Positions 603 through 48,051 of a stretch of 64,000 bases of DNA are shown here, one piece after another (the first letter of the stretch is position 1; each line of letters opens with the position of its first letter). Origin of the DNA: Laetmonice hystrix (Eukaryota); contig OZ249436.1 of NCBI GenBank assembly GCA_965235115.1, positions 37,884,001 through 37,948,000 on the forward strand, given 5' to 3'. The notes under the pieces are model-generated. The model was not told the origin of the DNA. It searched no databases and worked only from the letters and a program-made list of their open reading frames with translations. The position numbers and the translations under genes were made by a program.

Positions 603-668
603 CGCCCGATGAGGGACTCGAACCCGCGACCCTCAGATTAAAAGTCTGATGCTCTACCGACTGAGCTA
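603..668 (-). pseudogene. 5'-truncated tRNA-Lys(UUU), positions ~8-73, interrupted by a transposon end
   Basis: Revcomp reads TAGCTCAGTCGGTAGAGCATCAGACTTTTAATCTGAGGGTCGCGGGTTCGAGTCCCTCATCGGGCG, with D arm, anticodon stem TCAGA/TCTGA around TTT, T-loop, and a T4 terminator at 591-594. The 5' acceptor strand (GCCCGG..) is replaced by CCCCAGCT. Confidence 0.92.
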
Positions 669-749
669 AAGCTGGGGGATAAAGGACTGTACGAAAGGGG
701 GGAAAAGAGGGGGGAAAGGGGGCAAAAGGGAAGAGAGAAAAGGAACGAA

Positions 750-2835
750 ACTTGGTCAAATTCACCTCCACCCGACGCCTTACTTTGAGCCCTTTACGGC
801 CTGGAGGAACATCGGAGTGTAACCAGCCCCCCTTCCAGGATATAATGAAGGAGTGTGCCAAAAAAAGAAGTTGGCACAAAAAGTGTAAGGGGCCGAAAAA
901 GTGCCCCAAACTTGGCCTTTCCCGCCGATACTGTAGCCAATATAGGGATTCATCTCCACCCGACGCCTTGCTGTGAGCCCTTTCCGGCCTGGAGGAACAT
1001 CGGAGTGTAACCAGCCCCCCTTCCAGGACATAATAAAGGGGTGTGCGAAAAAGCAAGTTGGCACAAAAAGTGTAAGGCGCCGAAAAATTGCCCCAAACAT
1101 GGCCTTCTCCGCCGATACTGTAACCAGTATGGGGAAATTTACGTAAACCCGACCCTTTACTGTGAGCCCTTAACGGCCTGGAGGAACATCGGAGTGTAAC
1201 CAGTCCCCCTTCCAGGACATAATGAAGGGGTGTGCCAAAAAAGAAGTTTAAACAAAAAGTGTAAGGGGCAGAAAAATTATTCGAAACTTGGCCAAATTCA
1301 CCTTCACCCGACGCCTTACTATGAGTCCTTTATGGCCTGGAGGAACATCGGAGTGTAACCAGCCCCCCTTCCAGGACATAATGAAGGAGTGTGCCAAAAA
1401 GGAAGGTGGCACAAAAAGTGTAAGGGGCAGACAAATTGCCCCAAATTTGGCCTTTTCCGCCCATACTCTAAGCAATATGGGGAAAAATTTACCTAAACCC
1501 GATCCCTTACTATGAGCCCTTTACGGCCTGGAGGAACATCGGAGTGTAACCAGCCCCCCTTCCAGGACATAATGAAGAGGTGTGCCAAAAAAGAAGTTGG
1601 CACAAAAAGTGTAAGGGGCGGAAAAAGTGCCCCAAACTTGGCCTTCCCCGCCGATACTATAGCCAATATAGGGAAATTCACCTCCACCCGACGCCTTACT
1701 GTGAGCCCTTGACGGCCTAAAGAAACATCGGAGTGTAACCAGTCCCCCTTCCAAGACATAATGAAGGGGTGTGCGAAAAAGCAAGTTGGCACAAAAAGTG
1801 TAAGGCGCCGAAAAATTGCCCCAAACATGGCCTTCTCCGCCGATACTGTAACCAGTATGGGGAAATTTACGTAAACCCGACCCTTTACTGTAAGCCCTAG
1901 ACGGTCTGGAGGAACATCGGAGTGTAACCAGTCCCCCTTCCAGGACATAATGAAGGGGTGTGCCAAAAAAGAAGTTTAAACAAAAAGTGTAAGGAGCCAA
2001 AAGATTGCCCCAAACTTTGCCTTCTCCGCCCATACTATAACCAATATAGGGAAATTCACCTCCACCGGACGCCTTACTATGAGCCCTTTACGGCCTGGAG
2101 GAACATCGGAGTATAACTAGCCCCTTTTCCAGGACATAATAAAGGGGTGTACGGAAAAAGAAGTTGGCACAAAAAGTGTAAGGGGCCGAAAAATTGCCCC
2201 AAACTAGGCTTTCTCCGCCCATACTCTAAGCAATATGGGGAAATTTACCTTGACCCGACCCCTTACTATGAGCCCTTTACGGCCTGGAGGAACATCGGAG
2301 TGTAACCAGCCCCCCTTCCAGAACATGATGAAGGAGTGTGCCAAAAAGGAAGGTGGCACAAAAAGTGTAAGGGGCAGACAAATTGCCCCAAATTTGGCCT
2401 TTTCCGCCCATACTCTAAGCAATATGGGGAAAAATTTACCTAAACCCGATCCCTTACTATGAGCCCTTCACGGCCTGGAGGAACATCGGAGTGTAACCAG
2501 CCCCCCTTCCAGGACATAATGAAGAGGTGTGCCAAAAAAGAAGTTGGCACAAAAAGTGTAAGGGGCAGAAAAAGTGCCCCAAACTTGGCCTTCCCCGCCG
2601 ATACTATAGCCAATATAGGGAAATTCACCTCCACCCGACGCCTTACTGTGAGCCCTTGACGGCCTGAAGAAACATCGGAGTGTAACCAGCCCCCCTTCAA
2701 GGACATAATGAAGGGGTGTGCCAAAAAAGAAGTTGGCACAAAAAGTGTAAGGGGCAGAAAAATTGCTCCAAACTTGGCTTTCTCCGTTGATACTCTAACC
2801 AATATGCGGAAATTTACCTAAACCCCATCCTTTAA
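750..2835. repeat. ~189-bp subterminal tandem repeat, ~11 copies (left arm)
   Basis: The motif GGAGGAACATCGGAGTGTAACC recurs at 803, 991, 1180, 1339 (short unit), 1530, 1719, 1908, 2097, 2286 and onward. Confidence 0.95.
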
Positions 2836-2868
2836 TGTGGGTTTATAATCGTAAACAAAACACTTTAA

Positions 2869-3208
2869 AGGTGCTATTCGTGAACAAAAATTCAATTTTT
2901 TTATTTTTAATTTTGTTGACGTTTATGTGATCCCATCTATCATGGAAATAGGTTCACAACAAAGGAAATCAAAATTTTTCATGGATAACGGCACAAATGG
3001 GGCTCTCTCAGAAGGCCTGTGGAGACCCTGACACGCCCCACCATAGGAAATGGCTCTATCTCGGTGCGCACCGAGATAGGTTTCAAATGCTGCACACAAA
3101 CTAATAGAAGGTTTATCAGGCCAATGGTATCGGTAGGAATTTTTTCTAGTACTATGTGCACAATGTATGATAGGAGAAATGCCATTCTGTGCGAGACGAA
3201 TAGCACCT
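2869..3208. mobile_element. 340-bp TTAA MITE (Kolobok-type) nested in left arm
   Basis: TTAA|AGGTGCTATTCGT ... ACGAATAGCACCT|TTAA (perfect 13-bp TIR). Internal palindrome CTATCTCGGTGCGCACCGAGATAG. Confidence 0.85.
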
Positions 3209-3539
3209 TTAAGACCCTAGCCTAGATTGAAATCAGTATTTCTTTACTGTCTGTAATAGCTACCATTGTTTGAACTCTTCAAAGGATTTGAATCTGGGAT
3301 CGTTCGGGCAATACTTTTCCCATCTTATTTGACTGTGGCCTGACTCATTTCAATGTTAAACAAATGCATAAAGTAATTCTAAGAACATTTATTACTCAAA
3401 CTGTAACTTGTCACATACCAACAGTGTTGGAACAACCTCCGGCTACACACTTTGGCATTTCGCAGGCTGAGACATGATTGAAACATTTAAGATATCGACA
3501 GAAAAATATCACATGGATGTCACAGAGGGCCTTTGAGAC

Positions 3540-3735
3540 TGACGGAATGCAGCGAAACAAGAGGCCACACAGCGTAAAAATATTTAAGGAGCGACTCCGA
3601 CTTGACTGCAGAAAATTTTCATTCGCTTATAGAGTGTCTGACCCCTCGAACAGCATCACAGAACATATATTACACCATCAGTACAAGTTTTTGAATGAAG
3701 ACTAGATAAATATTGGAAGAATCACAACTTTATGT
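3540..3735 (+). mobile_element. Degenerate 3' end of a CR1/L2-type LINE ORF2 (mirrored at ~6075-6270)
   Basis: Translation HSVKIFKERLRLDCRKFSFAYRVSDPSNSITEH followed by a RLDKYW motif resembles the conserved CR1-group RT C-terminus (recognised from memory of the family pattern). Confidence 0.65.
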
Positions 3736-4561
3736 ACAACTTTAGAGCTCTCCCAACTCTTGATCATGTACAAACACTATTACTACCATCAAGTAGTTTT
3801 CAAATAATGAGCTGGCATAAGAGATCTTATATGTTTTGTTTCATCACACGATGGTTCTTGTGTATGCTGGGTGTAATCACCCCATAACTTAAACATAGCC
3901 ATATATTGGCAGCTTCCATATCGACCACACCACAAGGACTGTCAGCATCCACTACCTTAACCCCTAAATATAAACAATACAATCTCAGCATATGTCACTC
4001 CATCTTTAAAGTATTGTAGTTGTATACACAGAAATTCCACTTTCTTGTATACTCCAAGTATATTCCATCCATTATGTAATAACACCATCACTCCTTGAAG
4101 GTTTACATATAACTTATGCTTTGATTGTTTGTAATCTTTTCTTTGTAACACTTCCTCTGTCAAACCACCTATCCGCTTGGTCACATGACTTTAATATTAG
4201 TCATTGGCTACAATCTATCCTCCAACCAGGAACATGTACAATACAAGTATTTGAACGAAGACTAGATAAATATTGGAAGAATCACAACTTTATGTACAGT
4301 GAACCAAACACTTTTTTGCAAACTTAACATATGAACTCTGCCTTTGAGCTTTGCCTCTGCGTTTCAATCAAAAATCATGTTAGTCATGGCAGTGCACCCT
4401 ATTTAAATGGTTGAGGTAAACAAACAACTTTACAGAATTCAAGATGCCAACTCTTTGGCAAAATTTCAACACGGAAAATTCAGCCAAAGACAATGCTATG
4501 TGCTATTGCATTCAAAAAATGCTGCTTTGCTTTAATAACACATCAAAATTTCTGAGCTAAC

Positions 4562-4768
4562 CTTGTGATAACCACAGCTGCATACGACATCTCGACCAAA
4601 CAGATCTTTACTTTTTCCTTGGCCTGGACAGTTCTTGATTTTTTCATATTCTTGTCGCCACGTGCTGTTTTTCGGTGGTACCTGGCCACGGCGAACTTTA
4701 AATGTGCCATTGGCAAAGCCCTTGAGGCGCGTCAGCCATTCTTTCTCACTGGGTCCCTCTTTTGGCAT
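4562..4768 (-). CDS. Orphan first coding exon (69 aa), putative transposase N-terminus
   Basis: Acceptor tttgcag at 4788, 19-nt UTR, ATG at 4768, MPKEGPSEKEWLTRLKGFANG...WRQEYEKIKNCP...CSCGYHK, then donor AAG|GTTAG at 4561. A candidate upstream donor GAG|GTAAAC lies at 4898. No downstream exons are seen. Confidence 0.6.
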
Positions 4769-6603
4769 GATTGATGATATCCAGGATCTGCAAATATAGT
4801 CAGGAAATAAAAACTAATTCTCCTGTCTTCTTGAATTTTAATTCTTGAAATTTTGCCAAAGAGTTGGCATCTTGAATTCTGTAAAGTTGTTTGTTTACCT
4901 CAACCATTTAAATAGGGTGCACTGCCATGACTAACATGATTTTTGATTGAAACGCAGAGGCAAAGCTCAAAGGCAGAGTTCATATGTTAAGTTTGCAAAA
5001 AAGTGTTTGGTTCACTGTACATAAAGTTGTGATTCTTCCAATATTTATCTAGTCTTCGTTCAAATACTTGTATTGTACATGTTACTGGTTGGAGGATAGA
5101 TTGTAGCCAATGACTAATATTAAAGTCATGTGACCAAGCGGATAGGTGGTTTGACAGAGGAAGTGTTACAAAGAAAAGATTACAAACAATCAAAGCATAA
5201 GTTATATGTAAACCTTTAAGGAGTGATGGTGGTATTACATAATGGATGGAATATACTTGGAGTATACAAGAAAGTGGAATTTCTGTGTATACAACTACAA
5301 TACTTTAAAGATGGAGTGACATATGCTGAGATTGTATTGTTTATATTTAGGGGTTAAGGTAGTGGATGCTGACAGTCCTTGTGGTGTGGCCGATATATGG
5401 AAGCTGCCAATATATATATGGCTATGTTTAAGTTATGGGGTGATTACACCCAGCATATACACAAGAAACAGTCGTGTGATGAAACAAAACATATAAGATC
5501 TCTTATGCCAGCTCATTATTGGAAAACTTGATGGTAGTAATAGTGTTTGTACATGATTAAGAGTTGGGAGAGCTCTAAAGTTGTACATAAAGTTGTAATT
5601 GTAGCCAATGACTAATATTAAAGTCATGTGACCAAGCGGATAGGTGGTTTGACAGAGGAAGTGTTACAAAGAAAAGATTACAAACAATCAAAGCATAAGT
5701 TATATGTAAACCTTCAAGGAGTGATGGTGTTATTACATAATGGATGGAATATACTTGGAGTATACAAGAAAGTGGAATTTCTGTGTATACAACTACAATA
5801 CTTTAAAGATGGAGTGACATATGCTGAGATTGTATTGTTTATATTTAGGGGTTAAGGTAGTGGATGCTGACAGTCCTTGTGGTGTGGTCGATATGGAAGC
5901 TGCCAATATATGGCTATGTTTAAGTTATGGGGTGATTACACCCAGCATACACAAGGACCATCGTGTGATGAAACAAAACATATAAGATCTCTTATGCCAG
6001 CTCATTATTGGAAAACTACTTGATGGTAGTAATAGTGTTTGTACATGATCAAGAGTTGGGAGAGCTCTAAAGTTGTACATAAAGTTGTGATTCTTCCAAT
6101 ATTTATCTAGTCTTCATTCAAAAACTTGTACTGATGGTGTAATATATGTTCTGTGATGCTGTTCGAGGGGTCAGACACTCTATAAGCGAATGAAAATTTT
6201 CTGCAGTCAAGTCGGAGTCGCTCCTTAAATATTTTTACGCTGTGTGGCCTCTTGTTTCGCTGCATTCCGTCAGTCTCAAAGGCCCTCTGTGACATCCATG
6301 TGATATTTTTCTGTCGATATCTTAAATGTTTCAATCATGTCTCAGCCTGCGAAATGCCAAAGTGTGTAGCCGGAGGTTGTTCCAACACTGTTGGTATGTG
6401 ACAAGTTACAGTTTGAGTAATAAATGTTCTTAGAATTACTTTATGCATTTGTTTAACATTGAAATGAGTCAGGCCACAGTCAAATAAGATGGGAAAAGTA
6501 TTGCCCGAACGATCCCAGATTCAAATCCTTTGAAGAGTTCAAACAATGGTAGCTATTACAGACAGTAAAGAAATACTGATTTCAATCTAGGCTAGGGTCT
6601 TAA

Positions 6604-6943
6604 AGGTGCTATTCGTCTCGCACAGAATGGCATTTCTCCTATCATACATTGTGCACATAGTACTAGAAAAAATTCCTACCGATACCATTGGCCTGATAAA
6701 CCTTCTATTAGTTTGTGTGCAGCATTTGAAACCTATCTCGGTGCGCACCGAGATAGAGCCATTTCCTATGGTGGGGCGTGTCAGGGTCTCCACAGGCCTT
6801 CTGAGAGAGCCCCATTTGTGCCGTTATCCATGAAAAATTTTGATTTCCTTTGTTGTGAACCTATTTCCATGATAGATGGGATCACATAAACGTCAACAAA
6901 ATTAAAAATAAAAAAATTGAATTTTTGTTCACGAATAGCACCT
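6604..6943. mobile_element. 340-bp TTAA MITE nested in right arm (mirror of 2869-3208)
   Basis: TTAA at 6600-6603 and 6944-6947, same 13-bp TIR. Confidence 0.85.
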
Positions 6944-6974
6944 TTAAAGTGTTTTGTTTACGATTATAAACCCA

Positions 6975-8660
6975 CATTAAAGGATGGGGTTTAGGTAAAT
7001 TTCCGCATATTGGTTAGAGTATCAACGGAGAAAGCCAAGTTTGGAGCAATTTTTCTGCCCCTTACACTTTTTGTGCCAACTTCTTTTTTGGCACACCCCT
7101 TCATTATGTCCTTGAAGGGGGGCTGGTTACACTCCGATGTTCCTCCAGGCCGTCAAGGGCTCACAGTAAAGGGTCGGGCTTACGTAAATTTGCCCATTTT
7201 GGTTACAGTATCGGCGGAAAAGGCCAAGTTTCGGGCAATTTGTCTGCCCTTACACTTTTTGTGCCAACTTGCTTTTTCGCACATCCCTTTATTATGTCCT
7301 GGAAAAGGGGCTAGTTATACTCCGACGTTCCTCCAGGCCGTAAAGGGCTCATAGTAAGGCGTCCGGTGGAGGTGAATTTCCCTATATTGGTTATAGTATG
7401 GGCGGAGAAGGCAAAGTTTGGGGCAATTTTTTGGCTCCTTACACTTTTTGTTTAAACTTTCTTTTTGGCACACCCCTTAATTATGCCGTGGAAGGGGGAC
7501 TGGTTACACTCCGATGTTCCTCCAGGCCGTCAAGGGCTCACAGTAAAGGGTCGGGTTACAGTATCGGCGGAGAAGGCCATGTTTGGGGCAATTTTTCGGC
7601 GCCTTACAATTTTTGTGCCAACTTCCTTTTTCGCACACCCCTTCATTATGTCTTGGAAGGGGGACTGGTTACACTCCGATGTTTCTTCAGGCCGTCAAGG
7701 GCTCACAGTAAGGCGTCGGGTGGAGGTGAATTTCCCTATATTGGCTATAGTATCGGCGGGGAAGGCCAAGTTTGGGGCACTTTTTCTGCCCCTTACACTT
7801 TTTGTGCCAACTTCTTTTTTGGCACACCTCTTCATTATGTCCTGGAAGGGGGGCTGGTTACACTCCGATGTTCCTCCAGGCCGTAAAGGGCTCATAGTAA
7901 GGGATCGGGTTTAGGTAAATTTTTCCCCATATTGCTTAGAGTATGGGCGGAAAAGGCCAAATTTGGGGCAATTTGTCTGCCCCTTACACTTTTTGTGCCA
8001 CCTTCCTTTTTGGCACACTCCTTCATTATGTCCTGGAAGGGGGGCTGGTTACACTCCGATGTTCCTCCAGGCCATAAAGGACTCATAGTAAGGCGTCGGG
8101 TGAAGGTGAATTTGGCCAAGTTTCGAATAATTTTTCTGCCCCTTACACTTTTTGTTTAAACTTCTTTTTTGGCACACCCCTTCATTATGTCCTGGAAGGG
8201 GGACTGGTTACACTCCGATGTTCCTCCAGGCCGTTAAGGGCTCACAGTAAAGGGTCGGGTTTACGTAAATTTCCCCATACTGGTTACAGTATCGGCGGAG
8301 AAGGCCATGTTTGGGGCAATTTTTCGGCGCCTTACACTTTTTGTGCCAACTTGCTTTTTCGCACACCCCTTTATTATGTCCTGGAAGGGGGGCTGGTTAC
8401 ACTCCGATGTTCCTCCAGGCCGGAAAGGGCTCACAGCAAGGCGTCGGGTGGAGATGAATCCCTATATTGGCTACAGTATCGGCGGGAAAGGCCAAGTTTG
8501 GGGCACTTTTTCGGCCCCTTACACTTTTTGTGCCAACTTCTTTTTTTGGCACACTCCTTCATTATATCCTGGAAGGGGGGCTGGTTACACTCCGATGTTC
8601 CTCCAGGCCGTAAAGGGCTCAAAGTAAGGCGTCGGGTGGAGGTGAATTTGACCAAGTTTC
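6975..8660. repeat. ~189-bp subterminal tandem repeat, ~9 copies (right arm)
   Basis: Reverse complement of the 750-2835 array, about two units shorter. Confidence 0.95.
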
Positions 8661-8738
8661 GTTCCTTTTCTCTCTTCCCTTTTGCCCCCTTTCCCCCCTC
8701 TTTTCCCCCCTTTCGTACAGTCCTTTATCCCCCAGCTT

Positions 8739-8804
8739 TAGCCCAGTCGGTAGAGCATGGGACTCTTAATCCCAGGGTCGTGGGTTCGAGCCCCACATTG
8801 GGCG
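8739..8804 (+). pseudogene. 5'-truncated tRNA-Lys(CUU), positions ~8-73, interrupted by a transposon end
   Basis: TAGCCCAGTCGGTAGAGCATGGGACTCTTAATCCCAGGGTCGTGGGTTCGAGCCCCACATTGGGCG, with anticodon stem TGGGA/TCCCA around CTT and TTTT at 8809-8812. The 5' acceptor strand is missing and the D stem has one mismatch. Confidence 0.92.
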
Positions 8805-11157: not shown

Positions 11158-11294
11158 GGACATTTGGGCCACGGACATATGGGCCACGGACGTTTTGGGC
11201 CACGAACCTGCAACGTAGGAGATTTTGGCCACGTGGTTACGGTTAGGGTGCAGGTGCAGGTTCGTGGCCCAAAACGTCCGTGGCCCAAATGTCC
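11158..11294. mobile_element. Small palindromic MITE-like element
   Basis: GGACGTTTTGGGCCACGAACCTGCA ... TGCAGGTTCGTGGCCCAAAACGTCCGTGGCCCAAATGTCC form inverted arms around GGTTACGGTTAGGG. Confidence 0.6.
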
Positions 11295-15163: not shown

Positions 15164-18100
15164 ATGAAGATCTATTTGTCGTTACTTGTAGTCGCGGTTA
15201 GTTGTACATGGTGCGTGCAGTGTAAGCCAGCCGACGCTACCTTCAATCAGGTGCTATTGTCACGTTCGCGGTCAGTGTCAGAGACAGAGCAGTTACTAGA
15301 GTTAGTTGACCTCATCAAGGCATTCAAGCCGAAAAAGCCAGTGTTCGAATCCAAGCTGACGAAGGGACCACACAAACATGTTACACATGACAAGGAACAT
15401 CAGAAAGACGACACTTGTGGCTATCAGGTAAACGTTGTGTGTGTCACATAATGTCTCCCCCCCCCCAACTTAAAGGGAGTCGTAAAATTCATTTTTTTCG
15501 ATTTATGGCAGTCTTAGAAACATATGATTCGCATACCTTGGACTCCCAGTAACATCATGTGAGACTGTTATGGCCCAGCGACCAGTATTTAGTAAGGAAA
15601 ATATGCCAAATCTCTCGCAAATACGTAGCTCAGAATTAGCGAGCGGCCCACAGTATATTTGAGTTGGCCGCGGTCGGGCGATGATGACGCGTGGTCACGT
15701 GACTTCCGGGTGTGGAAGGGAATCTCCCTCTAGTCTAGTGTTGACCTAAATACCGCATGTACACCCGTCACGTGATCACGCGTCATCATCGCCCGACCGC
15801 GGCCAACTCAAATATCCTGTGGGCCGCTCGCTAATTCTGAGCTACGTATTTGCGAGAGATTTGGCATATTTTCCTTACTAAATACTGGTCGCTGGGCCAT
15901 AACAGTCTCACATGATGTTACTGGGAGTCCAAGGTATGCGAATCATATGTTTCTAAGACTGCCAAAAATCGAAAAAAATGAATTTTACGACTCCCTTTAA
16001 GCCAAGGCCAAGCCAAATAAAAACTTAGAATCTATAATATGGATTATGATATCGGATAATCGGGCAGGGGCGGATCCGGGGCCAAGTTCATGAAGTTGGG
16101 AAGGGACAACACAAGGGACAGCAGTAATCTTGAGTTTAATCAAGTACATTACAACGGGCACGGCTAGGATACTATCTTTGATTTCTCTGCATGGTGTCCT
16201 GTATACCATATGTAGGCGGTCTGGCACTTAACAAAGTAACGATTACAAGTCAATAAAAAGAAGATAAAGAGATTCAGATCGAGTAGGGGATTAAAAGAAG
16301 TTAAAAACCATCATTAATTCTGTATTTTGAAATTAGACTGCGTACTTCATCCATCAGCGTATTGTTATACTTTACATTTGATATTTTGCAGACCTGTAAT
16401 CAGGGTAAGGCAAACATGCTGAATGTCCACCTTGTACCACATACACATGATGACGTCGGCTGGATTATGACTGTTGACCAGTATTACTACAAAGGTCTGT
16501 TAAACGTGAATAGTGAAATATTAAATCTTCCACAAGATTTGTGGACTCATAAATCTATGATTCAGTTGGTTAAACGATATCTGTTCTCTAGGCCAAAGCT
16601 GAAGTTATGTTTTACACTGTAGACAGGGCTGCTTGTATGATTTTGGGCATAATTCATACACATTTTCATTTAAGTTCTATTCAATGCTAAACCACATGGT
16701 TAGGAGGTCCCTACACTCACACTACACTTATTTATCCAATTAATTTGTTACTGCTGCAATTTTATATGTCATAATTATTTTCAAAACAAAATTGATTTTA
16801 CATGTTGATTCACATACACTTTAGATTCTGATTTCATGTGGAACTGTTTTTATTTTCATGTTTATAGAGGTACAGTACATCCTCGATAGTGCAATGGTTG
16901 AACTCAGCAAAAATTCCAAGCGTAGGTTCATTTATGTCGAGATGGCATTCTTCTATAGATGGTGGAATGAACAACATGACAGTATGCGACACGTCATCAA
17001 GAGACTAGTGAATGAAGGTGACATGATAATATTATGTATTACACACATTGATGTCTTTATGATGAATCCAGGCCTCGAATTAGAAGTTGAAAGGGGCACG
17101 GCAAAAACTGCTGTCGATACATAAGAATCAACGTCAGATTTTTCCAGGGCAAATTTACGATACAGGTATGGAAAAGGCATGATGGCAAATGCTGTCGATG
17201 CCGTCGTGTAATTCGAGGCCTGTGAACCTACAATGGTTGTAAAAAGAATAATGTATCATTGTTGCAGAAATAATACAACATCATCCTGCAGCCACCTTGA
17301 ATTTATCCTGGGTGGTTGGTAAGATTTAGTGTTAACCTATGATATGTTTTCATATTACAGGTCGCCTTGAGTTTATATTGGGAGGGTGGTGTATGAATGA
17401 TGAGGCATCGACTCATTACAACGCCATCATTGATCAACACACAACTGGCTTCAAGTTCATCAAGGATAACTTTGGCGAGTGTGGCCGGCCAAAGATCGGT
17501 TGGCAGATTGACCCTTTTGGACATTCACGGGAACAAGCTTCACTCTTTGCTCAAGTGTGTTCCAGGAGGGTTTTGTCTTTAAGAAGTTTGAAAAGTTTCT
17601 GTTATAATATATGCTCCTTTTACATGAATCAATTCTTTTATGTATGTTTTTGTCTTTGAAATTTGAAAATCATTTGTCTTAACAGCCAATTTTTGTAGCA
17701 AACACTAGATCACACTGTCAACTTTTTTCTCTCTTAAATGTAAATTTGCATATTGCTATATTCCTACTCAGTTTGGATTCGATGGTCTTTTTTTTGGACG
17801 CCTTGACTTCCAAGACAAAATAACTCGTCAGCACAGTAAGACCATGGAGATGCTGTGGAACGGAAGTCCCAACAACTTGGGTATGGTCGTAAATATAATT
17901 GAAGCATCAAAATCCCACTGATTTCATGTAACTCAAATACTTCTTTCTGCTTGGAAAATGAGAATGAGAAATGTGAAGGGTTACATGGCTGGTGTGTGGG
18001 GTTTGGTTTCCAGAAGGTGTTATAATTGTGTTACTAATTCTGATACAGGTGACCAGGGGGCACTGTTCACAGGAGTTAACTTCAATGGTTACTCACAGCC

Positions 18101-30100: not shown

Positions 30101-33100
30101 ATAAGAACATTGTCTTGGTCATTAAAGTTTTCGGTTACTCGTGAATAAAACTTTGAAGATTCCTGCAAAAAATAAGAATCAAAGCGTCAGATGCCCTAAC
30201 CTTGTAAGCCTACGATTGAAATAAGGTGTCGGTACTTCTTGGAATCGCCACGCTCTATGAAAGCTTCACTTGTGAAAACTAAAGTTACTGACACGCTTGA
30301 CAAGACAATGATGTCTTTATTCTTACCACACCTACCCCCGACCCTGTTCAGCATAATATCCTTGCAATATGAGTGTGGAACATTGGCATTTTTTTCCATG
30401 GCTGTAATGTAGAGATTTTTTCTTTCTCATCTATAAATGGATACTTACGCGAGCCGTGCATGTTAAGAATGTAAAGCGCTTACATTGACCAAGTGAGTTG
30501 GCAGTGATTTTTTAGTTGGTTTCTGTTTTGACGTGGAATTCAAATAAGTCTTAGTGTATTTTTCAGTTATTCTTGCCAAGAATACGTAGTCATTAGCAGA
30601 ACGTCGTATGTAATATGATCTCGACCCGTATCCGGAAGTGTGTACGCGGTACGCAATAATCGTTTCCGGTTAGGACGACATTACCCATCCGAGTAATGAG
30701 AACTCGCAAAGTTCATCTCAGTACAAACTCTGTGCCTCTTCACATTCTCACATGTTTCTTGGGGAGATATATGTTCCCAGATGGTAGAGGGGTTGAACCC
30801 CAGTAGACGTCAACGTTTGTACGTTGTGTGGTAACTGTTAGGTAGCCGTACAAGTTGCACTCAGTGGGGCCGAGTGCTGCTTGGCCTGCCAGGGTCACTT
30901 CACCCAGTTGTGGTCGTTTACCTGACAATAGTTGTTGCATGTCGTGATGTTGTGGCGGTAGGGACCACCCCCACACCAAATTTAATAGTTTGGGAGAGTA
31001 AATGCTGCACTTGTTGTAGGGTTTAAACTTGCATGGCTCCGTAGAACATGTTAGTACTATAGAAGGATGCGGGGACGTAAAACAGTTTTTTTTTTGAATG
31101 ATAGATCAGGAAATCCAGAGAATCCAGGTATAATATCATTTTTTTTTATAAATTATTGTAAAGCCGTGAAAATGAAATCATCGGCTATCAAGGATCCTTC
31201 AGTCTAGTGAGATAACGTTATGTTACGTTGACATAAGGTTTTAGGGGTTACACGAGGGGTGAGTGGGTGTGGTAGCTACCCAAGGGACGGGGGTAATCTC
31301 AGCCACCCCGCAGGTGTATGTCTCCACCACCAGTTTAACCGAACCACCGGCGGCCACATCCTGTACCCCCCCCCCGGCCGTCACGGCTCCCGTACATACT
31401 TCACGACCCGGCCCCGTGCCGCTCGGCCGGCGGTCCGAGCACAGGGCCGGGCTTTCCCCGCCCCACCCCGGCCGCCGCTGTTCCTGATCCCCGCCGGGGG
31501 CCGAGCTCGCTCACCCACCCACCCATCGTCCTCCCGCATACTGCCCTCAGGGCGGGCGCTGACATTTAGCAGGTTTTGTCCCAATGATGACGGTAACTTA
31601 ACCTCACAATTGAGTCACACGGCGCACATCAGACTGACTGTCTGCCTATTAACAATACCTCGACATTTCTTCACCGACCAACCCCAACATTACCTGTGAT
31701 CGCTGGTCGTGTAGGGATCAGACAGTCAACCAGACGCCGAGCCAAAGTCACCACTTAACTACTCGTAACAGGCCAAAGTGGGGTGTTCTCTAAATTAGCT
31801 CTTTGTCAGCATTCAGAATTAATTTATTTTCAGATTTCGTGAATTTCTGTTATTTTGTTGTCGTTTTGGACGGATAACGACGTTTCTGATCTCAGATTTG
31901 TAATTAAGTCTGACAAGGTGGGCTGGGTTACTCAGATGTTTTCGACTCACTATCGGTGTTATGTCAGGCTTTCACAGGGACAGACTGATGGACCTGCGTA
32001 TCTAAGGACGTTATTTTTACCATTTCTCTAACACAAACAACACTTGATGAAACCCATACAGACATACACTGTTTCTGTCAGGTTTTACTCATAACAAAAT
32101 GAAGAATGTAGTGTTACTGTTTACGGCTGGTCTTTGACACTAAAGTGACAAGCACTGACGTTAAGTAAGTACAGTGCCATGTTAGTAGACTGAAATCTTT
32201 ATCTGGTGAAACCTAATCATAATACCCTCATCATACAGGACGGAGAACCAGTACACTGACGTCACGCTAAAAGTTGCCATCCAATGATAATACTATGTAT
32301 TATATAAATGCGGAATATATACAATGCACAACTTTTACGAATTTTCTTATTGGGAAAGTTTTAGTTGGTGTTATTGGCTGCCGTGTAGCAGGGTTAGAAT
32401 ATTTCAATCTCTGAATGGAAACCGGTGAGGGTATGATCACAGATGTACGGTGGGTTTGATGTTGGAGGGTCTGTGGACCCAGAGATGGTTGAACACCCCC
32501 CCCCCCCCACCACCACCACCGCCACCACCACCACCACCACCACCACCACCACCACAAACATTGACCATTGATAGTAGAGGGTGACCGTAGACTGGTCTCT
32601 GAATGAACACCGGTCAGTCGACCCTGGGTGAGGGTATGATCACAGATGTACGGTGGGTTTGATGTTAGAGGGTCTGTGTACCCACAGATGGTTGAACACT
32701 GCCCCCCCCCCCACCACCACCACCACCACCACCACACAAACATTGACCATTGATAGTAGAGGGTGCCGTAGACTGGTCTCTGAATGGACACCGGTCAGCC
32801 GACCCTGGGTGAGGGTATGATCACAGATGTACGGTGGGTTTGATGTTGGAGGGCCTGTGTACCTACAGATGGTTGACCCCACCACCACCACCACCACCAC
32901 CGCCACCACCACCACCACCGTCATCTTAAGACACAAAGGTCCTTTTGTCACACTGATGTTTTTTGCTTTAATTTGTCTTTGAAAAAAAAGATTCTTTTAA
33001 CAAAAGTGATGTAACCTAGGTACCTTTTAACACAAAATGGGAAAAGTTTCGGACTTGGATAGTTTAGGAAATATAGCGACAACATTCCTCACCAGTGGTC

Positions 33101-36100
33101 CCTTTGTAACCCCCATCATATAATGTTGTCATGTAGACCTATTCAGTGTTCAAAATGCCCGAATAACGCTTTTGAATAAGAAATCCCTATTCACCGCAAC
33201 AAATTTCACCAAAATCAAAAAGAAAACAAAGTAAAATTTTGATTTCAAATTTTGAGCAATCAAGTTCATTCACAACCACGCCCCGACAGACCGTTTGCTA
33301 TCAAAAATACTGACCTATTGCAGTTTTTATTAAAATTATCGTTTATATAACGCAAATGTTACAATAAAGTAGCTTAGAACCTATGGATTGTGATTTAATT
33401 GTCAGGAAATCCTTTCTCGGCCGATTAATTATTTTCAGTGATTTTTGATCTATTAAATCCCGGCGGGTATATTTTATGGACTGGTCCCTTTGTCACTCGG
33501 CCGTTTTCATGTCTTTACAAGACTAGCAGCCATTTAGATTAATTTTACCTTATGTACTGGAATTAATCAAATATAATGAGCAATTTTATTTTTTTCAATT
33601 AAGTCCCAGTGATGTTATTTGTTTGAATGGCTAGGGTTAGGGTTAGGCTAGGGTTAGGGCTAGGGTTAGGGCTAGGGTTAGTTAGGGTTACGGCATCCCG
33701 GTATAGAGCAGGTGTCCCGGTATGGGGAAAAGTTGCCTGAAACCTGGAGCGTGATTATATTATCAGGAAAATATTTTTCGCCATATAAATTATTTGACAT
33801 TGATTTTCATATATTAAAACCTGCCGGGGTATTTTTTATTGAATGGTCCTTTTGTCACCTGACCTTTTCAGGTTCTCGTCGTTACAAGAATTGCAGCCAT
33901 TTAGAGAGATTTTACCTTATGTATTGGAATTAATAAAATATAATAAGCAATCTCACCTTTTTAAATTAAGTCTGAGGCATGGTATTTGTTAAAATGGCTA
34001 GGGTTAGGGTTAGTTAGGGTTACGGTTCGGTTTAGTTAGGGCTGGTATCCCGGTATAGAGCAGGTGTCCCGGTATGGGGAAAAGTTACCTGAAAGCTGGA
34101 GTGTGATTATATTGTCAGGAAAATATTTTCTGCCACATTAATTAGTTTTAATGGATTTTGATACATTAAAACCTGGCGGTGTATATTTTATTGAGTGGTC
34201 CTTTTGTCACCCGGCCGCTTGAGTGGTCAGGGTTAGGTAGGCCTTGCGTCCCGGTATAAAACTGGTGTCCGAGTATAGGGCTAATGTCTCGGTATAGGGC
34301 TGGTGTCCCGTTATAGGGCTTGTGACCCGGTATGGGGCTGGTGTCCCGGTATAGGGCCGGTGTCCCGCTATAGGGCTGGTGTCCCGTTATAGGACAGGTG
34401 TCCCGGTATGGGGCCGGTGTCCCGGTATAGGGCCGGTGTCCTGAAATGGGGCCGGTGTCCCGATATGGCACATGTGTCCCGATATGGGGCTGGTGTCCCG
34501 GTATCGGGCCGATGTCCCGGTATAGGGCCGGTGTCCTGATATGGGGCCGGTGTCCCGGTATGGGGCTGGTGTCCCGGTATAGGGCCGGTGTCCTGATATG
34601 GGGCCGGTGTCCCGGTATGGGGCTGGTGTCCCGGTATAGGGCCGGTGTCCCGGTATGGGGCTGGTGTCCCGGTATAGGGCCGGTGTCCTGATATGGGGCC
34701 GGTGTCCCGGTATGGGGCCGGTGTCCCGGTATAGGGTTGGTGTCCCAGTATAGTGCTGGTGTCCCGATATAGGACATGTGTCCCGGTATAGGGCTGGTGT
34801 CCCGGTATAGGGCTGGTGTCCCGATATGGGACATGTGTCCCGGTATAGGGCTGGTGTCCCGAAATAGGACAAGTGTCCCGAAATAGGACAAGTGTCCCGG
34901 TATGGGGCTGGTGTCCCGGTATGGGGCTGGTGTCCCGGTATAGGGCTGGTGTCCCGGTATAGGGCCGGTGTCCCGGTATAGGGCCGGTGTTCCGGTATAG
35001 GGCCGGTGTCCTGAAATGGGGCCGGTCTCCCGGTATGGGGCTGGTGTCGCGGTTTCGGGCCGGTGTCCCGGTACAGGGCCGGTGTCCCGGTATAGGGCCG
35101 GTGTCCTGATATGGGGCCGGTGTCCCGGTATGGGGCTGATGTCCCGGTATAGGGCTGGTGTCTCGGTATAGGGCTGGTGTCCCGGTATGGGGCCGGTGTC
35201 CCGATATGGGGCAGGTGTCCCGTTATCGGGCTGGTGTCCCGGTATAGGGCTGGTGTTCTGGTATAGGGCTGTTGTACTGGTATAGGGCTTGTGTCCCGGT
35301 ATGGGGCTGGTGTCCCGGTATAGGGCCGGTGTCCCGGTATAGGGCCGGTGTCCCGGTATAGGGCCGGTGTCCCGGTATAGGGCCGGTGTCCTGATATGGG
35401 GCCGGTGCCCCTGTATGGGGCCGGTGTCCCGGTATGGGGCCGGTGTCCCGGTATGGGGCCGGTGTCCCGGTATAGGGCCGGTATTCCGGTATAGGGCCGG
35501 TGTCCCGGTATAGGGCCGGTGTCCTGATATGGGGACGGTGTCCCGGTATGGGGCCGGTGTCCCGGTATAGAACCGGTGTCCCGGCATAGGGCCGGTGTCC
35601 CGGCATAGGGCCGGTGTCCCGGTATAGGGCCGGTGTCCTGATATGGGGCCGGTCTCCCGGTATGGGGCTGGTGTCGCGGTTTAGGGCCGGTGTCCCGGTC
35701 TAGGGCCGGTGTCCCGGTATAGGGCCGGTGTCCTGATATGGGGCCGGTGTCCCGGTATAGGGCCGGTGTCCCGGTATGGGGCTGGTGTCCCGGTATAGGG
35801 CTGGTGTCCCGGTATAGGGCTGGTGTCCCGGTATAGGGCCGGTGTCCTGATATGGGGCCGGTCTCCCGGTATGGGGCTGGTGTCCCGGTATGGGGCTGGT
35901 GTCCCGGTATAGGGCCGGTGTCCTGATATGCGGACGGTGTCCCGGTATGGGGCCGGTGTCCCGGTATAGGGCCGGTGTCCCGGTATAGGGCCGGTGTCCC
36001 GGTATAGGGCCGGTGTCCCGGTATAGGGCCGGTGTCCCGGTATAGGGCCGGTGTCCTGATATGGGGCCGGTCTGCCAGTATGGGGCTGGTGTCCCGGTAT

Positions 36101-39100
36101 GGGGCTGGTGTCCCGGTATAGGGCTGGTGTCCCGGTATAGGGCTGGTGTCCCGGTATAGGGCCGGTGTCCTGATATGGGGCCGGTGTCCCGGTATGCGGC
36201 TGGTGCCCCGGTATGGGGCTGGTGTCCCGCTATAGGGCTGGTGTCCCGGTATAGGGCTGGTGTCCCGGTATGGGGCCGGTGTCCCGATATGGGGCAGGTG
36301 TCCCGTTATCGGGCTGGTGTCCCGGTATAGGGCTGGTGTCCCGGTATGGGGCTGGTGTCCCGGTATAGGGCCGGTGTCCTGATATGGGGCTGGTGTCCCG
36401 GTATAGGGCCGGTGTCCTGATATGGGGCTGGTGTCCCGGTATAGGGCTGGTGTCCCGGTATGGGGCTGGTGTCCCGGTATAGGGCCGGTGTCCTGATATG
36501 GGACTGGTGTCCCGGTATGGGGCCGGTGTCCCGATATGGGGCAGGTGTCCCGTTATCGGGCTGGTGTCCCGGTATGGGGCTGGTGTCCTGGTACAGGGCC
36601 GGTGTCCTGATATGGGGCTGGTGTCCCGGTATAGGGCCGGTGTCCTGATATGGGGCTGGTGACCCAGTATAGGGCTGGTGTCCCGGTATAGGTTGGTGTA
36701 CTAGTATTGGGCAGGAGTCCCGGTAGAGGGCTGGTGTCCCGGTATAGGGCTGGTGTCCCGGTATAGGGCTGGTGTCCCGGTATAGGGCCGGTGTCCCGGT
36801 ATAGGGCCGGTGTCCCGGTATAGGGCCGGTGTCCTGATATGGGGCCGGTGTCCCGGTATGGGGCTGGTGTCCCGGTATGGGGCTGGTGTTCCGGTATAGG
36901 GCTGGTGTCCCGGTATAGGGCTGGTGTCCCGGTATAGGGCCGGTGTCCTGATATGGGGCCGGTCTCCCGGTATGGGGCTGGTGTCCCGGTATGGGGCTGG
37001 TGTCCCGGTATAGGGCCGGTGTCCTGATATGCGGACGGTGTCCCGGTATGGGGCCGGTGTCCCGGTATAGGGCCGGTGTCCTGATATGGGGCCGGTGTCC
37101 CGGTATGGGGCTGGTGTCCCGGTATAGGGCCGGTGTCCTGATATGGGGCCGGTGTCCCGGTATGGGGCCGGTGTCCCGGGATAGGGCCGGTGTCCCGGTA
37201 TAGGGCCGGTGTCCTGATATGGGGCCGGTCTCCCGGTATGGGGCCGGTGTCGCGGTTTAGGGCCGGTGTCCCGGTATAGGGCCGGTGTCCCGGTATAGGG
37301 CCGGTGTCCTGATATGGGGCCGGTGTCCTGATATGGGGCTGGTGTCCCGGTATGGGGCTGGTGTCCCGGTATAGGGCTGGTGTTCTGATATGGGGCCGGT
37401 CTCCCGGTATGGGGCTGGTGTCGCGGTTTAGGGCCGGTGTCCCGGTATAGGGCCGGTGTCCCGGTATAGGGCCGGTGTCCTGATATGGGGCCGGTGTCCC
37501 GGTATGGGGCTGGTGTCCCGGTATGGGGCTGGTGTTCCGGTATAGGGCTGGTGTCCCGGTATAGGGCCGGTGTCCCGGTATAGGGCCGGTGTCCTGATAT
37601 GGGGCCGGTCTCCCGGTATGGGGCTGGTGTCCCGGTATGGGGCTGGTGTCCCGGTATAGGGCCGGTGTCCTGATATGCGGACGGTGTCCCGGTATGGGGC
37701 CGGTGTCCCGGTATGGGGCCGGTGTCCCGGTATAGGGCCGGTGTCCTGATATGGGGCCGGTGTCCCGGTATAGGGCCGGTGTCCCGGTATAGGGTCGGTG
37801 TCCCGGTATAGGGCTGGTGTCCCGGTATAGGGCTGGTGTCCCGGTATAGGGCCGGTGTCCTGATATGGGGCCGGTCTGCCAGTATGGGGCTGGTGTCCCG
37901 GTATGGGGCTGGTGTCCCGGTATAGGGCTGGTGTCCCGGTATAGGGCTGGTGTCCCGGTATAGGGCCGGTGTCCTGATATGGGGCCGGTGTCCCGGTATG
38001 CGGCTGGTGCCCCGGTATGGGGCTGGTGTCCCGCTATAGGGCTGGTGTCCCGGTATAGGGCTGGTGTCCCGGTATGGGGCCGGTGTCCCGATATGGGGCA
38101 GGTGTCCCGTTATCGGGCTGGTGTCCCGGTATAGGGCTGGTGTCCCGGTATGGGGCTGGTGTCCCGGTATAGGGCCGGTGTCCTGATATGGGGCTGGTGT
38201 CCCGGTATAGGGCCGGTGTCCTGATATGGGGCTGGTGTCCCGGTATAGGGCCGGTATCCTGATGTGGGGCCGGTCTCCCGGTATGGGGCTGGTGTCCCGG
38301 TATAGGGCCGGTGTCCCGGTATAGGGCCGGTGTCCTGATATGGGGCCGGTGTCCCGGTATGGGGCCGGTGTCCCGGTATAGGGCTGGTGTCCCAGTATAG
38401 TGTATAGATTACCGGGGGTAACCTGAAGCTAGCTTCAAATAACCCCCCGGTAATCTAAAGTTGGTTTCAAAAAGCCCCTCGGTTAGGGTCAAGGTAAGTT
38501 TAGGGTTAGGTCTATTTGAATTAACGTGCGAAACATTTTTTATGCGAAGTTTATTTTTGTAACTTGAAACTGGGAGGAGGGGGGTAATTTGAAGCTAGCT
38601 TCAGATTACCGAGGGATAACGTCAATGGGGGGGGGGGGGGTAATCTGAAACTGTTACACCGGTATAGGACAGGCGTCCCGGTATAGAAAAGGCGTCCTGC
38701 TATGGGACAGGCGTCCAGTATTTTACAGGGTTAGTTTTACAATTACCGGACTGGTGCCCCCAGTCTTGCAGATGAGGAATGATGCAAAAGGACCATTGTA
38801 AAGAGAAAAAACAAATTAAATAACTCGACGCCCAAAGAATAAAAAAATATAAGAAATTTCATTATGATTGTATATTATATTCCTCCTCTGTTTTTTAGGG
38901 TAAATCAGAAAAAAATCATTTTCAAAAGTCCAAGTGTGACAAAAGGACCAATAATGGTTACTTTGTCACATCATGATACAAAAGGACCAGTCAAAGTGAC
39001 AAAGGGACCACAGTGGTCCCTTTGTCACAGGTGATGATACAAAAGGACCAGTCAGTGTGACAAAAGGACCATCTTAAGATGACCACCGCCACCGCCACCA

Positions 39101-42100
39101 CCACCACCACCACACAAACATTGACCATTGATAGTAGAGGGTGCCGTAGACTGGTCTCTGAATGAACACCGGTCAGCCGACCCTGGGTGAGGGTATGATC
39201 ACAGATGTACGGTGGTTTTGATGTTGGAGGGTCTGTGGACCCACAGATGGTTGAACACCCCCCCCCCCCCACCACCACCACCACCACCACCACCACCACA
39301 AACATTGACCATTGATAGTAGAGGGTGACCGTAGACTGGTCTCTGAATGAACACCGGTCAGTCGACCCTGGGTGAGGGTATGATCACAGATGTACGGTGG
39401 GTTTGATGTTGGAAGGTCTGTGTACACACAGATGGTTGAACACCCCCACATTGTTGTATGAAGTATTGAGGAGGATTTTATGATGTATCTCATTACATAA
39501 CTGACCATTGATAGTAGAGGGTGACTGTAGACTGGTCTCTGAATGAAGTTTGATGTTGGAAGGCCTGTGTACCCACAGATGGGTGAACACCCCCCACATT
39601 GTTGTATGAAGTATTGAGGAGGATTTTATGATGTATCTCATTACATAACTGACGAGCTTTGTTCAGTCTGACCTGTTTCACATAATCGTTGTAGTGGGAA
39701 TACCCGTGTCATATCTCCCAGTATTCACGTCAGAAACATTTCAGTGTTAAACAAACAGAAATCACTCTCATGGTCATCCTTAACGATATCATGAGAAAGT
39801 GTTTCTCCCAATAAAAAGACGATTTATTTTAGATTCAGTTTGCTATGTCAGACAAGTAATCTGTAACAGAAATTCTTCTTATATTTGACCTGGTTACGTG
39901 CCAGAAAAGGTCGGTGAAAACTTGGCTGAGTGTATTGTATGTTGGAGTTACTGTACATTACCGGTATATAGTATACGGGTGTGAGGACAATAGGAGGTAT
40001 TGTATCTGTGTGACCCGGCACAACCCTGGATAATGGTGCACGGATGACAATAGATGCAGGGTCTAACTTCTATTGTTCAACTAAGAACTTCAGCCGCCCT
40101 AAGTGCCCACAAACTTATATTTGTCTTCATTTTATATCCAGAAGATATATTTCTTCAATGTTATTCAAATTCTTTCGCCAAATCGAGGTCGTTTGACTTG
40201 GAATACCATTTAAGTTTTTCAACAGAACATTTCGGAGCACAAGCTCTATAGCACGGACATCCCCCTAGATTTAAAACTGTTACATTGGAGTCGGCGATAT
40301 TTCTGGATAGTTACAGATTACAAAGTGGTATAAATTTGCTCCGATATTATTATACGATTCCATGACAAATGCTCACAAGACAAATGCTCACTACACTCAA
40401 AGAAAAAGAGACAATGCTCACAAATTGTTTTATAATCTATCTAACAGAATTTCTTTTTGACAAATAAAGATTGTAAAACAATTTGTGAGCATTTGTCTCT
40501 TTTTCTGTTAGTGTTGTGAGCCTTTGTCTTGTGAGCATTTGTCTTGTGAGCATTTGTCTTGTGAGCATTTGTCTTGTGAGCATTTGTATGCACACCTATT
40601 AGACAGTCAGCTTTAGAGAGGGATCGAGTCTGCTCAACATGCTGTAGTAATTCTCTAAGAGGCAGAGTCAAAAATGTTATACATGTTTATGTGTCTCTTT
40701 TTGGACATCTTCTTTCCTCCTCATGAGCCTACGTTAGGGAGGTTGTGAATGTTACGATAAGATCTCCGTAATACCAGATTGGAGGTCATGCCATTTCACA
40801 AACGGTTGAACCCAGTTAGTGGTGGCAATCACTGCCCACCGTCCGAGCATTGTCTTCATGACAGGGGACGTGTCAACCATACCGACACCACGGCCTCCTC
40901 GCCCAGCGCTGACCAGACGACAAAGGTCAAGACTAGACTGGTCATTAGAGATCAGCCGCTGTGACCAAACAGATGGTCATCACAGAATTGGTCAATCCAA
41001 AACCATGCAAGGCTCCCCCTCCTCCCGCCCCTGACCCTCACCCCTCCTATAGCTGACCCTTACAGCTTTATTTATCACCCTGTCTGGGTCGTAATCATGT
41101 GCCATCCCTTAAATAATTTTCCCTACCACCTTGCGTATTATGCAGAAGGTTGAAACACTTGCGAAAATCTCTACAGGGCTTTCTTCCCGACACAGATAAC
41201 AAGAAATACATGACGAGAAGCACGTCTATGTTGTATTTCTAAAAGATTACTTAGATCTGAAGTGAGGGTCAGTAAGAGCTAGGGTTCGAGTAATGACCTG
41301 CTATAACAGCTGTTTCACGAGACAAGCGACCAGTGAGGTCCAGCGACAGGTTGTTATAATTGACTAAGTTAAGAGTTGCGACTCGATGAGCCCGTGCCTG
41401 GACTGGTTAATGTTGGTGATGAAGATGTTTGAGTCGGACAGGGAGTCAGCCAATGATGTATATTTGATGCCGGCGATGAATGAGCCGTGTGAGGAGGCGG
41501 GCAGGTTGGGGCAATGGCAGCTGTGTATCGGGCTATTGGAAGCCTTGATTAATAAGCGAGCCAAGATAAGGGCACGTCTAATTCCAGATTGATGTAATTG
41601 TTTCTGTTAAAAAAAGAGCAACAGCAAACGACCGCCCGTTTCATACGAGTTGCTACATCTGAGGAGAGGTTATAATTATCAGGACCCAGGTCTATAATCG
41701 GAGCTTCTGCTTGTAATTCTTCCCAAAACAGCATTTATGATAGTGTAATAGGACACCATAATTGGATTACAGAGCGGGGAGGAAGGGGGGGGGGGTATGG
41801 GGACGATTTTCCATGAGGGGGGTCGTTTAGGGGGTTAGGAGCGATGTTGCTGACACACTCAACATGCCATCTTGTTACGGGTTTCATACAGACCGAGTGC
41901 TGACTCCAACCAACCAACAACACTGTAAGAATCCATGTTCGTACATAGGAGATAACATAATCGATTAACGCATGAGTTAAACGAAAGGCCACCCTGATTG
42001 TTTGGAAACATGTTGACCAGAATCAAAGCACTGAAGCTAGGATTCATTCCCGAAATTGTATTTTGGTATTGTAAAATATGGATTATCTGCGTACGTAAAT

Positions 42101-47746: not shown

Positions 47747-48051
47747 TCTTCGAGTCAAACCGTCCAACATCCGGGGCGTCATATAATCACGTGACATCGT
47801 AAAGGCCCCTAGTCATTGGTCAATGTCTCAGGGAGCGTAAACTGAAGGCTGACGGCCTGAAAGGCCAGAGTCCATTATTATTCATCCTCAGAGGCGGATC
47901 CAGGGTTTTGGAGGGAGGGGTGGCGGCGGCAAGGGAAAAATCCTGACAAAAGAGCCCAAAATGGTCAATTCAGAAAGCTCTATAATAAAAAGAACGGTCG
48001 GCAAAGAGGGGGTCCTGCTCCCCCCCCCCAAAAAAAAAAAAACTACATTAA

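Follow-up and report, generated by a model that had tools for sequence, protein, structure and literature searches.

A stretch of 64,000 nucleotides of the Laetmonice hystrix genome (GenBank assembly GCA_965235115.1, contig OZ249436.1, positions 37,884,001 to 37,948,000; hereafter, the window) carries an 8-kb palindrome that consists of two near-identical 3' ends of the transposon Dada, placed head-to-head and each sitting on a different broken tRNA-Lys gene. The locus is likely a one-off scar of DNA repair rather than a new mobile element. On balance, we favour an origin in which fold-back repair joined two sister insertions that pointed away from each other, with the loss of both 5' ends and of the DNA between them and a trimming of 320-330 bp on the right side. 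The features of the locus are collected in Table 1.

The self-comparison of the window placed the two inverted arms at 669-4469 (3801 bp) and 4845-8738 (3894 bp), with a spacer of 375 bp between them. These lengths agree with the ~3.8 and ~3.9 kb given in a preliminary description made from the sequence alone; the palindrome described there stands as regards the inverted arms, but the spacer in its centre means that it is not a perfect one. When the variable middle of the satellite is set aside, 3 of 2750 positions distinguish the arms: none at the outer end (0/951) or in the zone of the nested miniature inverted-repeat transposable element (MITE) and long interspersed nuclear element (LINE) remnant (0/1049), and 2/495 and 1/255 near the centre. 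All three differences outside the array thus fall in the 750 bp nearest the centre; arm-specific letters lie at 5084, 5956, and 6010, and a letter present only in the right arm sits 240 bp from the join. Beyond the tRNA pieces, the left and right flanks show no relation to each other.

Table 1. Coordinates of the features of the foldback locus in the window
Feature	Position	Strand	Basis or remarks
tRNA-Lys(TTT), nucleotides 8-73 only	603..668	-	Rfam tRNA 48.9 bits, model positions 7-64
Left Dada copy	669..4805	-	Runs from its 3' end at 669 to the break at 4805; non-autonomous, with a single transposase exon
Dada 3' terminal motif, left	669..691	-	TACAG-N9-CCCCAGCTT after pyrimidine tract; motif search
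Subterminal satellite, left	746..2825		11 units of ~189 bp, one of 159
Kolobok-type MITE, left	2869..3208		340 bp; TTAA on both sides (2865-2868, 3209-3212)
Likely decayed LINE (CR1-type) 3' coding remnant, left	3440..3760	+	Approximate limits; CR1-type motif
Single ~495-bp unit (doubled in right arm)	3720..4214		Left arm
First coding exon, Dada transposase	4562..4787	-	AG 4789-4788, ATG 4768, 69 codons, GT 4561-4560
Inverted snippet	4806..4825		X3/X4 loose ends at 4805, by-eye comparison; extra base at 4806
Filler, 19 nt	4826..4844		Local matches
Right Dada copy	4845..8738	+	3' end at 8738; begins at the position matching 4469
Two tandem units, 498 + 495 bp	5100..6092		5100-5597 / 5598-6092; right arm only
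Likely LINE remnant, right	6052..6372	-	3420-3680 identical to 6392-6132
Kolobok-type MITE, right	6604..6943		356/356 identical to left
Subterminal satellite, right	6973..8661		9 units
Dada 3' terminal motif, right	8716..8738	+	Same letters as left one; motif search
tRNA-Lys(CTT), nucleotides 8-73 only	8739..8804	+	ARAGORN, Rfam, sequence; points outwards

The published target of Dada-tK is formed by nucleotides 8-13 of tRNA-Lys, with the hexamer TAGCTC followed by AG (PMC8869645). The left tRNA-Lys(TTT) piece, which points outwards and keeps the A box, the B box, and the T-run terminator, opens with exactly this hexamer (668-663), while the right tRNA-Lys(CTT) piece opens with TAGCCC and then AG, one base off. 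The two pieces differ from each other at 10 of 66 positions, and their B boxes, at 623 and 8784, are the only ones at the foldback locus. Nucleotides 1-7 are missing from the tRNA-Lys genes at both ends, and the identity between the arms ends at nucleotide 8. A tRNA 5' piece with the target duplication gave no match in the window at ≤1 mismatch (chance expectation, 1.02), as already noted in the preliminary description, which had found no tRNA 5' half. TAGCTC and TAGCCC adjoin the two 3' ends, and both 5' ends are absent from the window, so that no pair of duplications is available for comparison.

The motif TACAG-N9-CCCCAGCTT occurs exactly twice in the 64 kb, at the two outer ends, and any match to it was found in none of 100 shuffles. 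A pyrimidine tract followed by the same motif was recognised by eye at the 3' end of all three fish Dada-tK elements in the supplement of the paper describing them, the end of LaCr being identified by its place in the supplement file (PMC8869645). Similar 3' ends are present there in Dada-tL, tN, tR, tY, and tS; therefore, the motif marks a wider Dada group. Indeed, the N9 part is closer, by eye, to that of the cod Dada-tS than to that of tK (6/9 vs 4/9 letters). No internal B-box-like motif is present near the 3' ends at the foldback locus, unlike several fish ends in which one was seen by eye (PMC8869645). From their sequence, both outer ends are assigned as 3' ends of a non-autonomous Dada at the published Dada-tK site.

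The broken right gene (8731-8803) passes for a complete tRNA-Lys in ARAGORN and Rfam, since the Dada end bears a partial resemblance to the 5' acceptor strand that was lost. The possibility of a tRNA restored at this junction was rejected: at best four to five shifted acceptor pairs can be drawn by eye, and the predicted folds are not cloverleaves. Stem mismatches are found at 8743 (D stem of the right piece) and at ~626 (T stem of the left piece), i.e., at 2 of 132 bases vs 0.1% difference between the arms. The insertions could be older than the arm identity suggests, via conversion of one arm by the other.

The orientation of the two copies comes from the transposase exon, which sits in the 375-bp spacer, is oriented like the left copy, and runs toward 669. 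The spacer is therefore part of the left copy, and the outer ends, previously read as left ends of the element, are both 3' (right) ends. Since the right copy begins at the position matching 4469, the exon is missing from it.

Among 1.84 billion proteins, 197 are related to the 69-amino-acid peptide encoded by the exon at E ≤ 0.001. The best named ones belong to a snail, a limpet, and a jellyfish (E from 1.5e-15 to 5.7e-09), and fish relatives are found at E of about 2e-06 to 6e-06, a ranking that points to a marine invertebrate as the likely host. DUF6729 is present in 5 of the 13 longer relatives scanned, and the limpet relative contains the DxxH core; two named fish relatives carry the Dada-tK-type N-terminus, as seen by eye in the coding sequence of Dada-tK_LaBe. 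Neither a search for the peptide in the Atlas, which gave no usable match, nor a word-index search against longer proteins added relatives. In metagenome scans, the end-plus-target pattern had no match, and none of the 217 pattern matches of the exon peptide was confirmed.

Outside the exon, the best E value obtained in the 64 kb with 153 queries, some of which include the core and the C-terminus, was 0.026, and the same queries did not find the DDE triad, the DxxH motif, or the zinc fingers of an intact transposase in the window. The absence of transposase homology outside exon 1 therefore makes the element a non-autonomous derivative, like Dada-U6N1_DR. Among 15 other frames of the window, none passed the curated cut-off of Pfam. 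In a tree of the exon peptides (40 rows, 71 columns), mostly unresolved and with long branches, the peptide did not group with the two fish tK-like proteins. Judged by its target and its end, the element is a Dada-tK, a designation that leaves aside descent from the fish tK lineage, given the unresolved tree.

The two copies meet in 39 nt (4806-4844). Read as its exact reverse complement, 4807-4825 reproduces the native 4801-4805 and the next 14 bases of the common family form; these 14 native bases occur nowhere else in the window. In the filler that follows, eight bases (4832-4839) are in register with the arm, and 4833-4844 contain a 5-bp mini-hairpin. A 9-base match of the filler lies 25 nt into the right arm, a result reached in 0.7%, 1.9%, and 12.7% of 5000 shuffles with a radius of 50, 100, and 400, respectively. 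Relative to the arms, the join is out of register by no more than 15 nt. An inverted copy of the bases adjacent to a break, so closely in register, is the signature of a fold-back.

The common form of the family was obtained from public data. Six public runs match part of 2800-6990, all as contigs, and four of them derive from one sample (shares 0.48-0.63). The contigs of four of the six runs were compared over 4420-5660: X3, X4, and X6, from the same sample, gave 21 + 16 + 8 = 45 contigs, all of them covered by the depth table, and X1 (marine metagenome, share 0.09) gave no contig on the centre. The shares of X1 and X2 carry no habitat evidence. Contigs drop rare variants, and the sample may come from another individual. 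The stretch corresponding to 4334-4805 is spanned without a break by one X4 contig, and that corresponding to 4334-4661 by one X3 contig; both thus cross 4469/4470, which had been proposed as the junction, and the join is instead at 4806-4844. At 4805, X3 and X4 contigs exit the window into 150-174 nt of other sequence at a depth of 476-581; its first 14 bases are the reverse complement of 4807-4820. This stretch, read as the normal upstream intron of the element, does not extend as far as the native 5' end.

At 4988 and 5073, every X3 and X4 contig differs from the letter common to both arms; therefore, the contigs show common family forms and not this locus. The family has multiple forms in these contigs, with variants every 100-300 bp near the centre, and unscaled contig depths of 430-640 suggest many family copies. 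An X6 contig leaves the window at 4795 into 28 letters resembling the CCAAT-rich 5' regions of fish Dada, and this loose end may be a spliced leader or a deletion form. We do not take it to demonstrate splicing, as it departs 8 nt upstream of the exon acceptor in a run whose kind is not on record.

Counting the satellite units gave 11 on the left and 9 on the right, the same numbers that had been estimated before. Units 9-10 of the left array repeat units 4-5 (with three and two differences). Units 1-4 and the last unit of the right array are identical to the left array, right unit 5 matches left unit 10 in every letter, and 5, 6, and 24 substitutions separate units 6-8 of the two arrays. The ~500-bp tandem duplication reported for the right arm only was also recovered, with a measured length of 498 bp (5100-5597/5598-6092). 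Its first unit differs from the second and from the left unit by seven substitutions and five indels. As a mark of the locus, the doubling was rejected, the unit junction being common among the family contigs: 5597/5598 is crossed by 61-nt contigs at a depth of 310 (X4) and 63 (X6). An internal deletion of ~65 bp in the unit (about 5221-5285) is a family form in all three runs. The unit is bracketed by a 60-bp direct repeat (95%) at 3679-3738 and 4239-4298 on the left and at 5016-5075 and 6074-6133 on the right, which reads like a second copy of the last codons of the LINE.

Two nested elements are shared by the arms, as the preliminary description had stated. The MITE, identical in its two 340-bp copies, has 13-bp inverted ends, starting with AG and ending with CT, and a 24-bp perfect palindrome at 3056-3079. 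Kolobok is defined by a TTAA duplication and by 5'-RR and YY-3' ends (PMC9587614); with its TTAA duplication and RR/YY ends, the nested element is classified by sequence as a Kolobok-type MITE. For the LINE remnant, the presence of the same segment in both arms holds; its likely identity comes from a CR1-type motif, by which approximately 3440-3760 would be a decayed 3' coding piece corresponding to the C-terminus of open reading frame 2. Two protein searches and Pfam gave no named match for this piece, and the Atlas gave unnamed clusters at 0.92-0.93.

In the origin that we favour, each 3' end would have been placed by a normal Dada insertion, one copy probably being a recent relative of the other. 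A break would have occurred at native 4805-4826, in the intron that immediately precedes the first coding exon, and the 3' end at the break would have folded back on itself, leaving the inverted snippet. The new strand may have been captured by the second, oppositely oriented copy, either through annealing or, following a short fold-back, through end joining. The centre would have been widened to 375 bp, and stabilised, by a second deletion, confined to one side, that removed about 320-330 bp and left the 19 nt of filler. The tandem parts (the middle of the satellite and the 498-bp unit) may have been swapped with other family copies before or after these events. The three differences near the centre and the differing array middles fit two copies with partly separate histories.

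Each of these kinds of repair has a documented counterpart. For fold-back inversions in yeast, the most frequent resolution is annealing with a copy in opposite orientation that lies on the lost fragment, or with another repeat (PMC7467729); short fold-back insertions of 5-34 bp followed by end joining have been documented (PMC11724301); and one-sided central deletions stabilise palindromes in mice (PMC8701086). Of the two origins put forward in the preliminary description, the first, i.e., two copies in divergent tRNA-Lys genes with deletion of the DNA between them, is the one that fits best, with the element now named as Dada at its tRNA-Lys site. With no 5' end, no transposase beyond exon 1, and no element promoter, the locus is predicted to be a dead scar.

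Several points weigh against this origin. The cited mechanisms come from yeast and mouse, and would extend to this animal by analogy. The window alone does not separate a deletion from an inversion or translocation, nor does it place the two tRNA genes as neighbours. In the three runs with cover, none of the 45 contigs covers 4806-4844, a gap that was not taken as evidence of absence. The 39-nt join gives no unique order for the fold-back and the one-sided deletion. Finally, the outer 951 bp are identical up to the terminus in spite of the frequent variants that the family contigs show near the centre, which fits a single-copy origin with a terminal switch at least as well, unless the arms convert each other.

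In such a single-copy origin, which we regard as rather unlikely, a single Dada copy would have formed the fold-back, alone or by fusion with its sister chromatid. One of the resulting two 3' ends would then have been carried by the transposase to nucleotide 8 of another tRNA-Lys gene, by one-ended or hybrid transposition, so that the palindromic chromosome was resolved precisely where the element ends. The identical outer zone would be explained together with the switch of the flank exactly at the terminus, and the letters at 4988 and 5073, shared by both arms and seen in no contig, also speak for it. A precedent is found in the zebrafish Dada-tL_DR, where 8 of 12 copies have flanks from two loci, ascribed to one-ended transposition (PMC3706591). 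Nevertheless, a divergence of about 3% or more in the array middles and in the extra 498-bp unit calls for a later exchange with other copies, and the three differences are nearest the centre, where none would be expected at first; moreover, the window holds no intact transposase. We advance only tentatively the corollary that the Dada transposase resolved the fold-back by carrying the lone 3' end to the second tRNA-Lys gene, the A-box-reading Dada end acting as a sequence-targeted joiner of tRNA genes. If this were true, it would mean deletions, inversions, and translocations at programmed sites, two-3'-end doubles recurring at tRNA-Lys genes in the lineage, and an ancient Dada end conserved from fish to this invertebrate.

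The same repair join could have occurred between distant loci, so that the scar would be an inversion or translocation breakpoint, but this seems improbable. In yeast, fold-backs can also be resolved through repeats located on other arms or chromosomes (PMC7467729), and the unrelated flanks beyond the tRNA pieces are consistent with such an event. It would require a reciprocal product or a non-reciprocal capture, and the position of the breaks, within about 330 bp in element coordinates, with the snippet within 15 nt, would be easier to obtain on one molecule or between close copies.

Equally improbable is an artefact of assembly or library preparation, in which a fold-back or chimeric read joined two real loci via their near-identical repeats. 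The lack of contigs over the join would agree with it, and fold-back artefacts amount to about 0.6% of nanopore genomic reads; the same source describes them as virtually absent from HiFi data (PMC12870357). The contigs, however, lack the alleles common to both arms and hence are not representative of this locus. That both arms were copied from a single molecule is contradicted by three substitutions (among them a letter found only in the right arm, close to the join), the 498-bp unit, the array middles, and the different tRNA genes on which they end. Furthermore, no assembler could invent the native bases, absent elsewhere in the window, and the filler that make up the join.

The second origin of the preliminary description, an element with two like ends moving as a unit, here a composite palindromic Dada derivative with two 3' ends, appears very improbable despite its intact and precise ends: an insertion with two ends at one target would place the 5' piece of the tRNA gene, along with a reversed target duplication, on one of the sides, but each side here is the 3' piece of a different gene; the usual form of the family runs past 4805 into native 5' sequence, and no contig has the palindromic join; and Dada ends are asymmetric, without terminal inverted repeats (PMC3706591).

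As to the properties of the palindrome itself, the cruciform that had been suggested is disfavoured: extrusion is less likely with a 375-bp spacer, as short spacers already stabilise palindromes (PMC8701086). A hairpin in single-stranded DNA may still form at the locus (PMC10164571). Silencing by a hairpin RNA would presumably need read-in from an outside promoter, because both element 5' ends are gone and both tRNA promoters face outwards.

The window contains further repeats. TAGGCCTA occurs 16 times, vs 0.93 expected from base composition. A second, smaller palindrome lies at 15469-16001 (533 bp, 93% self-complementary), with further ones at 40361-40546 and 11173-11294. An 888-bp element at 57272-58159, with 215-bp inverted ends (97%), contains a decayed helix-turn-helix transposase frame (57458-57952; Pfam HTH_32, E 0.0007, under the cut-off) and is likely of Tc1/mariner type. 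Another decayed DNA transposon is probably present at 48048-48951, where 900 bp are enclosed by imperfect inverted ends of about 130 bp (75%). The region 32424-39653 holds about 219 copies of a 19-bp satellite (34248-38400), flanked on both sides by a related CCA-rich repeat of 181-185 bp (94%), and a telomere-like TAGGGT run is found at 33629-33690.

Foldback elements such as Galileo and FB have long inverted arms, internal tandem repeats, and a central spacer, like this locus. They also have true terminal inverted repeats and one target duplication, and they move as units. Unlike them, the locus has no shared target duplication around one site, and it shows no sign of being multicopy in the contigs of the three runs from one sample, in which common family forms reach depths of hundreds.

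The scar looks real and built from known parts by known kinds of repair. With the fish Dada-tK elements (FuHe, LaBe, and LaCr), which belong with the A-box-targeting lineages tK, tN, tY, tR, and tS, it shares nucleotides 8-13 of tRNA-Lys as target, TAGCTC-AG, the same direction of element and tRNA, the 3' pyrimidine tract, the TACAG-N9-CCCCAGCTT motif, and a homologous N-terminal transposase domain (PMC8869645). It differs from the fish Dada-tK in its two 3' ends placed head-to-head, with no 5' end and only exon 1 left, and in its 189-bp subterminal satellite; moreover, the N-terminal domain is encoded by one exon here and by two in the fish Dada families (PMC8869645). Copies with sides from different tRNA genes are known for Dada-tL_DR, and internally deleted derivatives at the same target site for Dada-U6N1_DR (PMC3706591). 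However, the Dada-tL_DR copies and the tandem Dada-U1 keep one 5' and one 3' end or are arranged head-to-tail, and no inverted double is described in the part of that paper dealing with them (PMC3706591). Our literature searches found no inverted Dada double, and no relevant mention of a palindrome, a foldback, or a head-to-head arrangement turned up in either Dada paper (PMC8869645, PMC3706591). The name Dada-tK was found in the literature for fish only, in a search that left outside Repbase, subscription journals, the 2013 supplements, and the 2022 figures.

The centre resembles the yeast fold-back inversions, with the signature of a small-loop hairpin and with arms ending in different unique flanks after the capture of a second repeat (PMC7467729), as well as the short fold-back insertions, with a short inverted templated insertion at the join (PMC11724301). 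Both were selected events in laboratory yeast mutants, whereas the present case is a natural animal locus, inside a transposon, with a second deletion and filler. The one-sided deletion beside the symmetry axis, which leaves a spacer, recalls the centre-break revision of mouse transgenes (reviewed in PMC8701086), which took place in transgene concatemers and not in transposon ends.

The significance of the locus is modest overall. It offers a natural record, at the base-pair level, of fold-back repair and of later trimming of the centre in a target-specific transposon, in which the tRNA genes serve as fixed landmarks. Furthermore, it likely adds an invertebrate to the three fish in which the targeting of the tRNA-Lys A box and the 3' end motif are known, a point relevant to the suggestion that Dada has long kept the nucleotide 8-13 target (Kojima 2022, PMC8869645). 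Should the second junction be the work of the transposase itself, rearrangements between tRNA genes would have a site-specific source in Dada.

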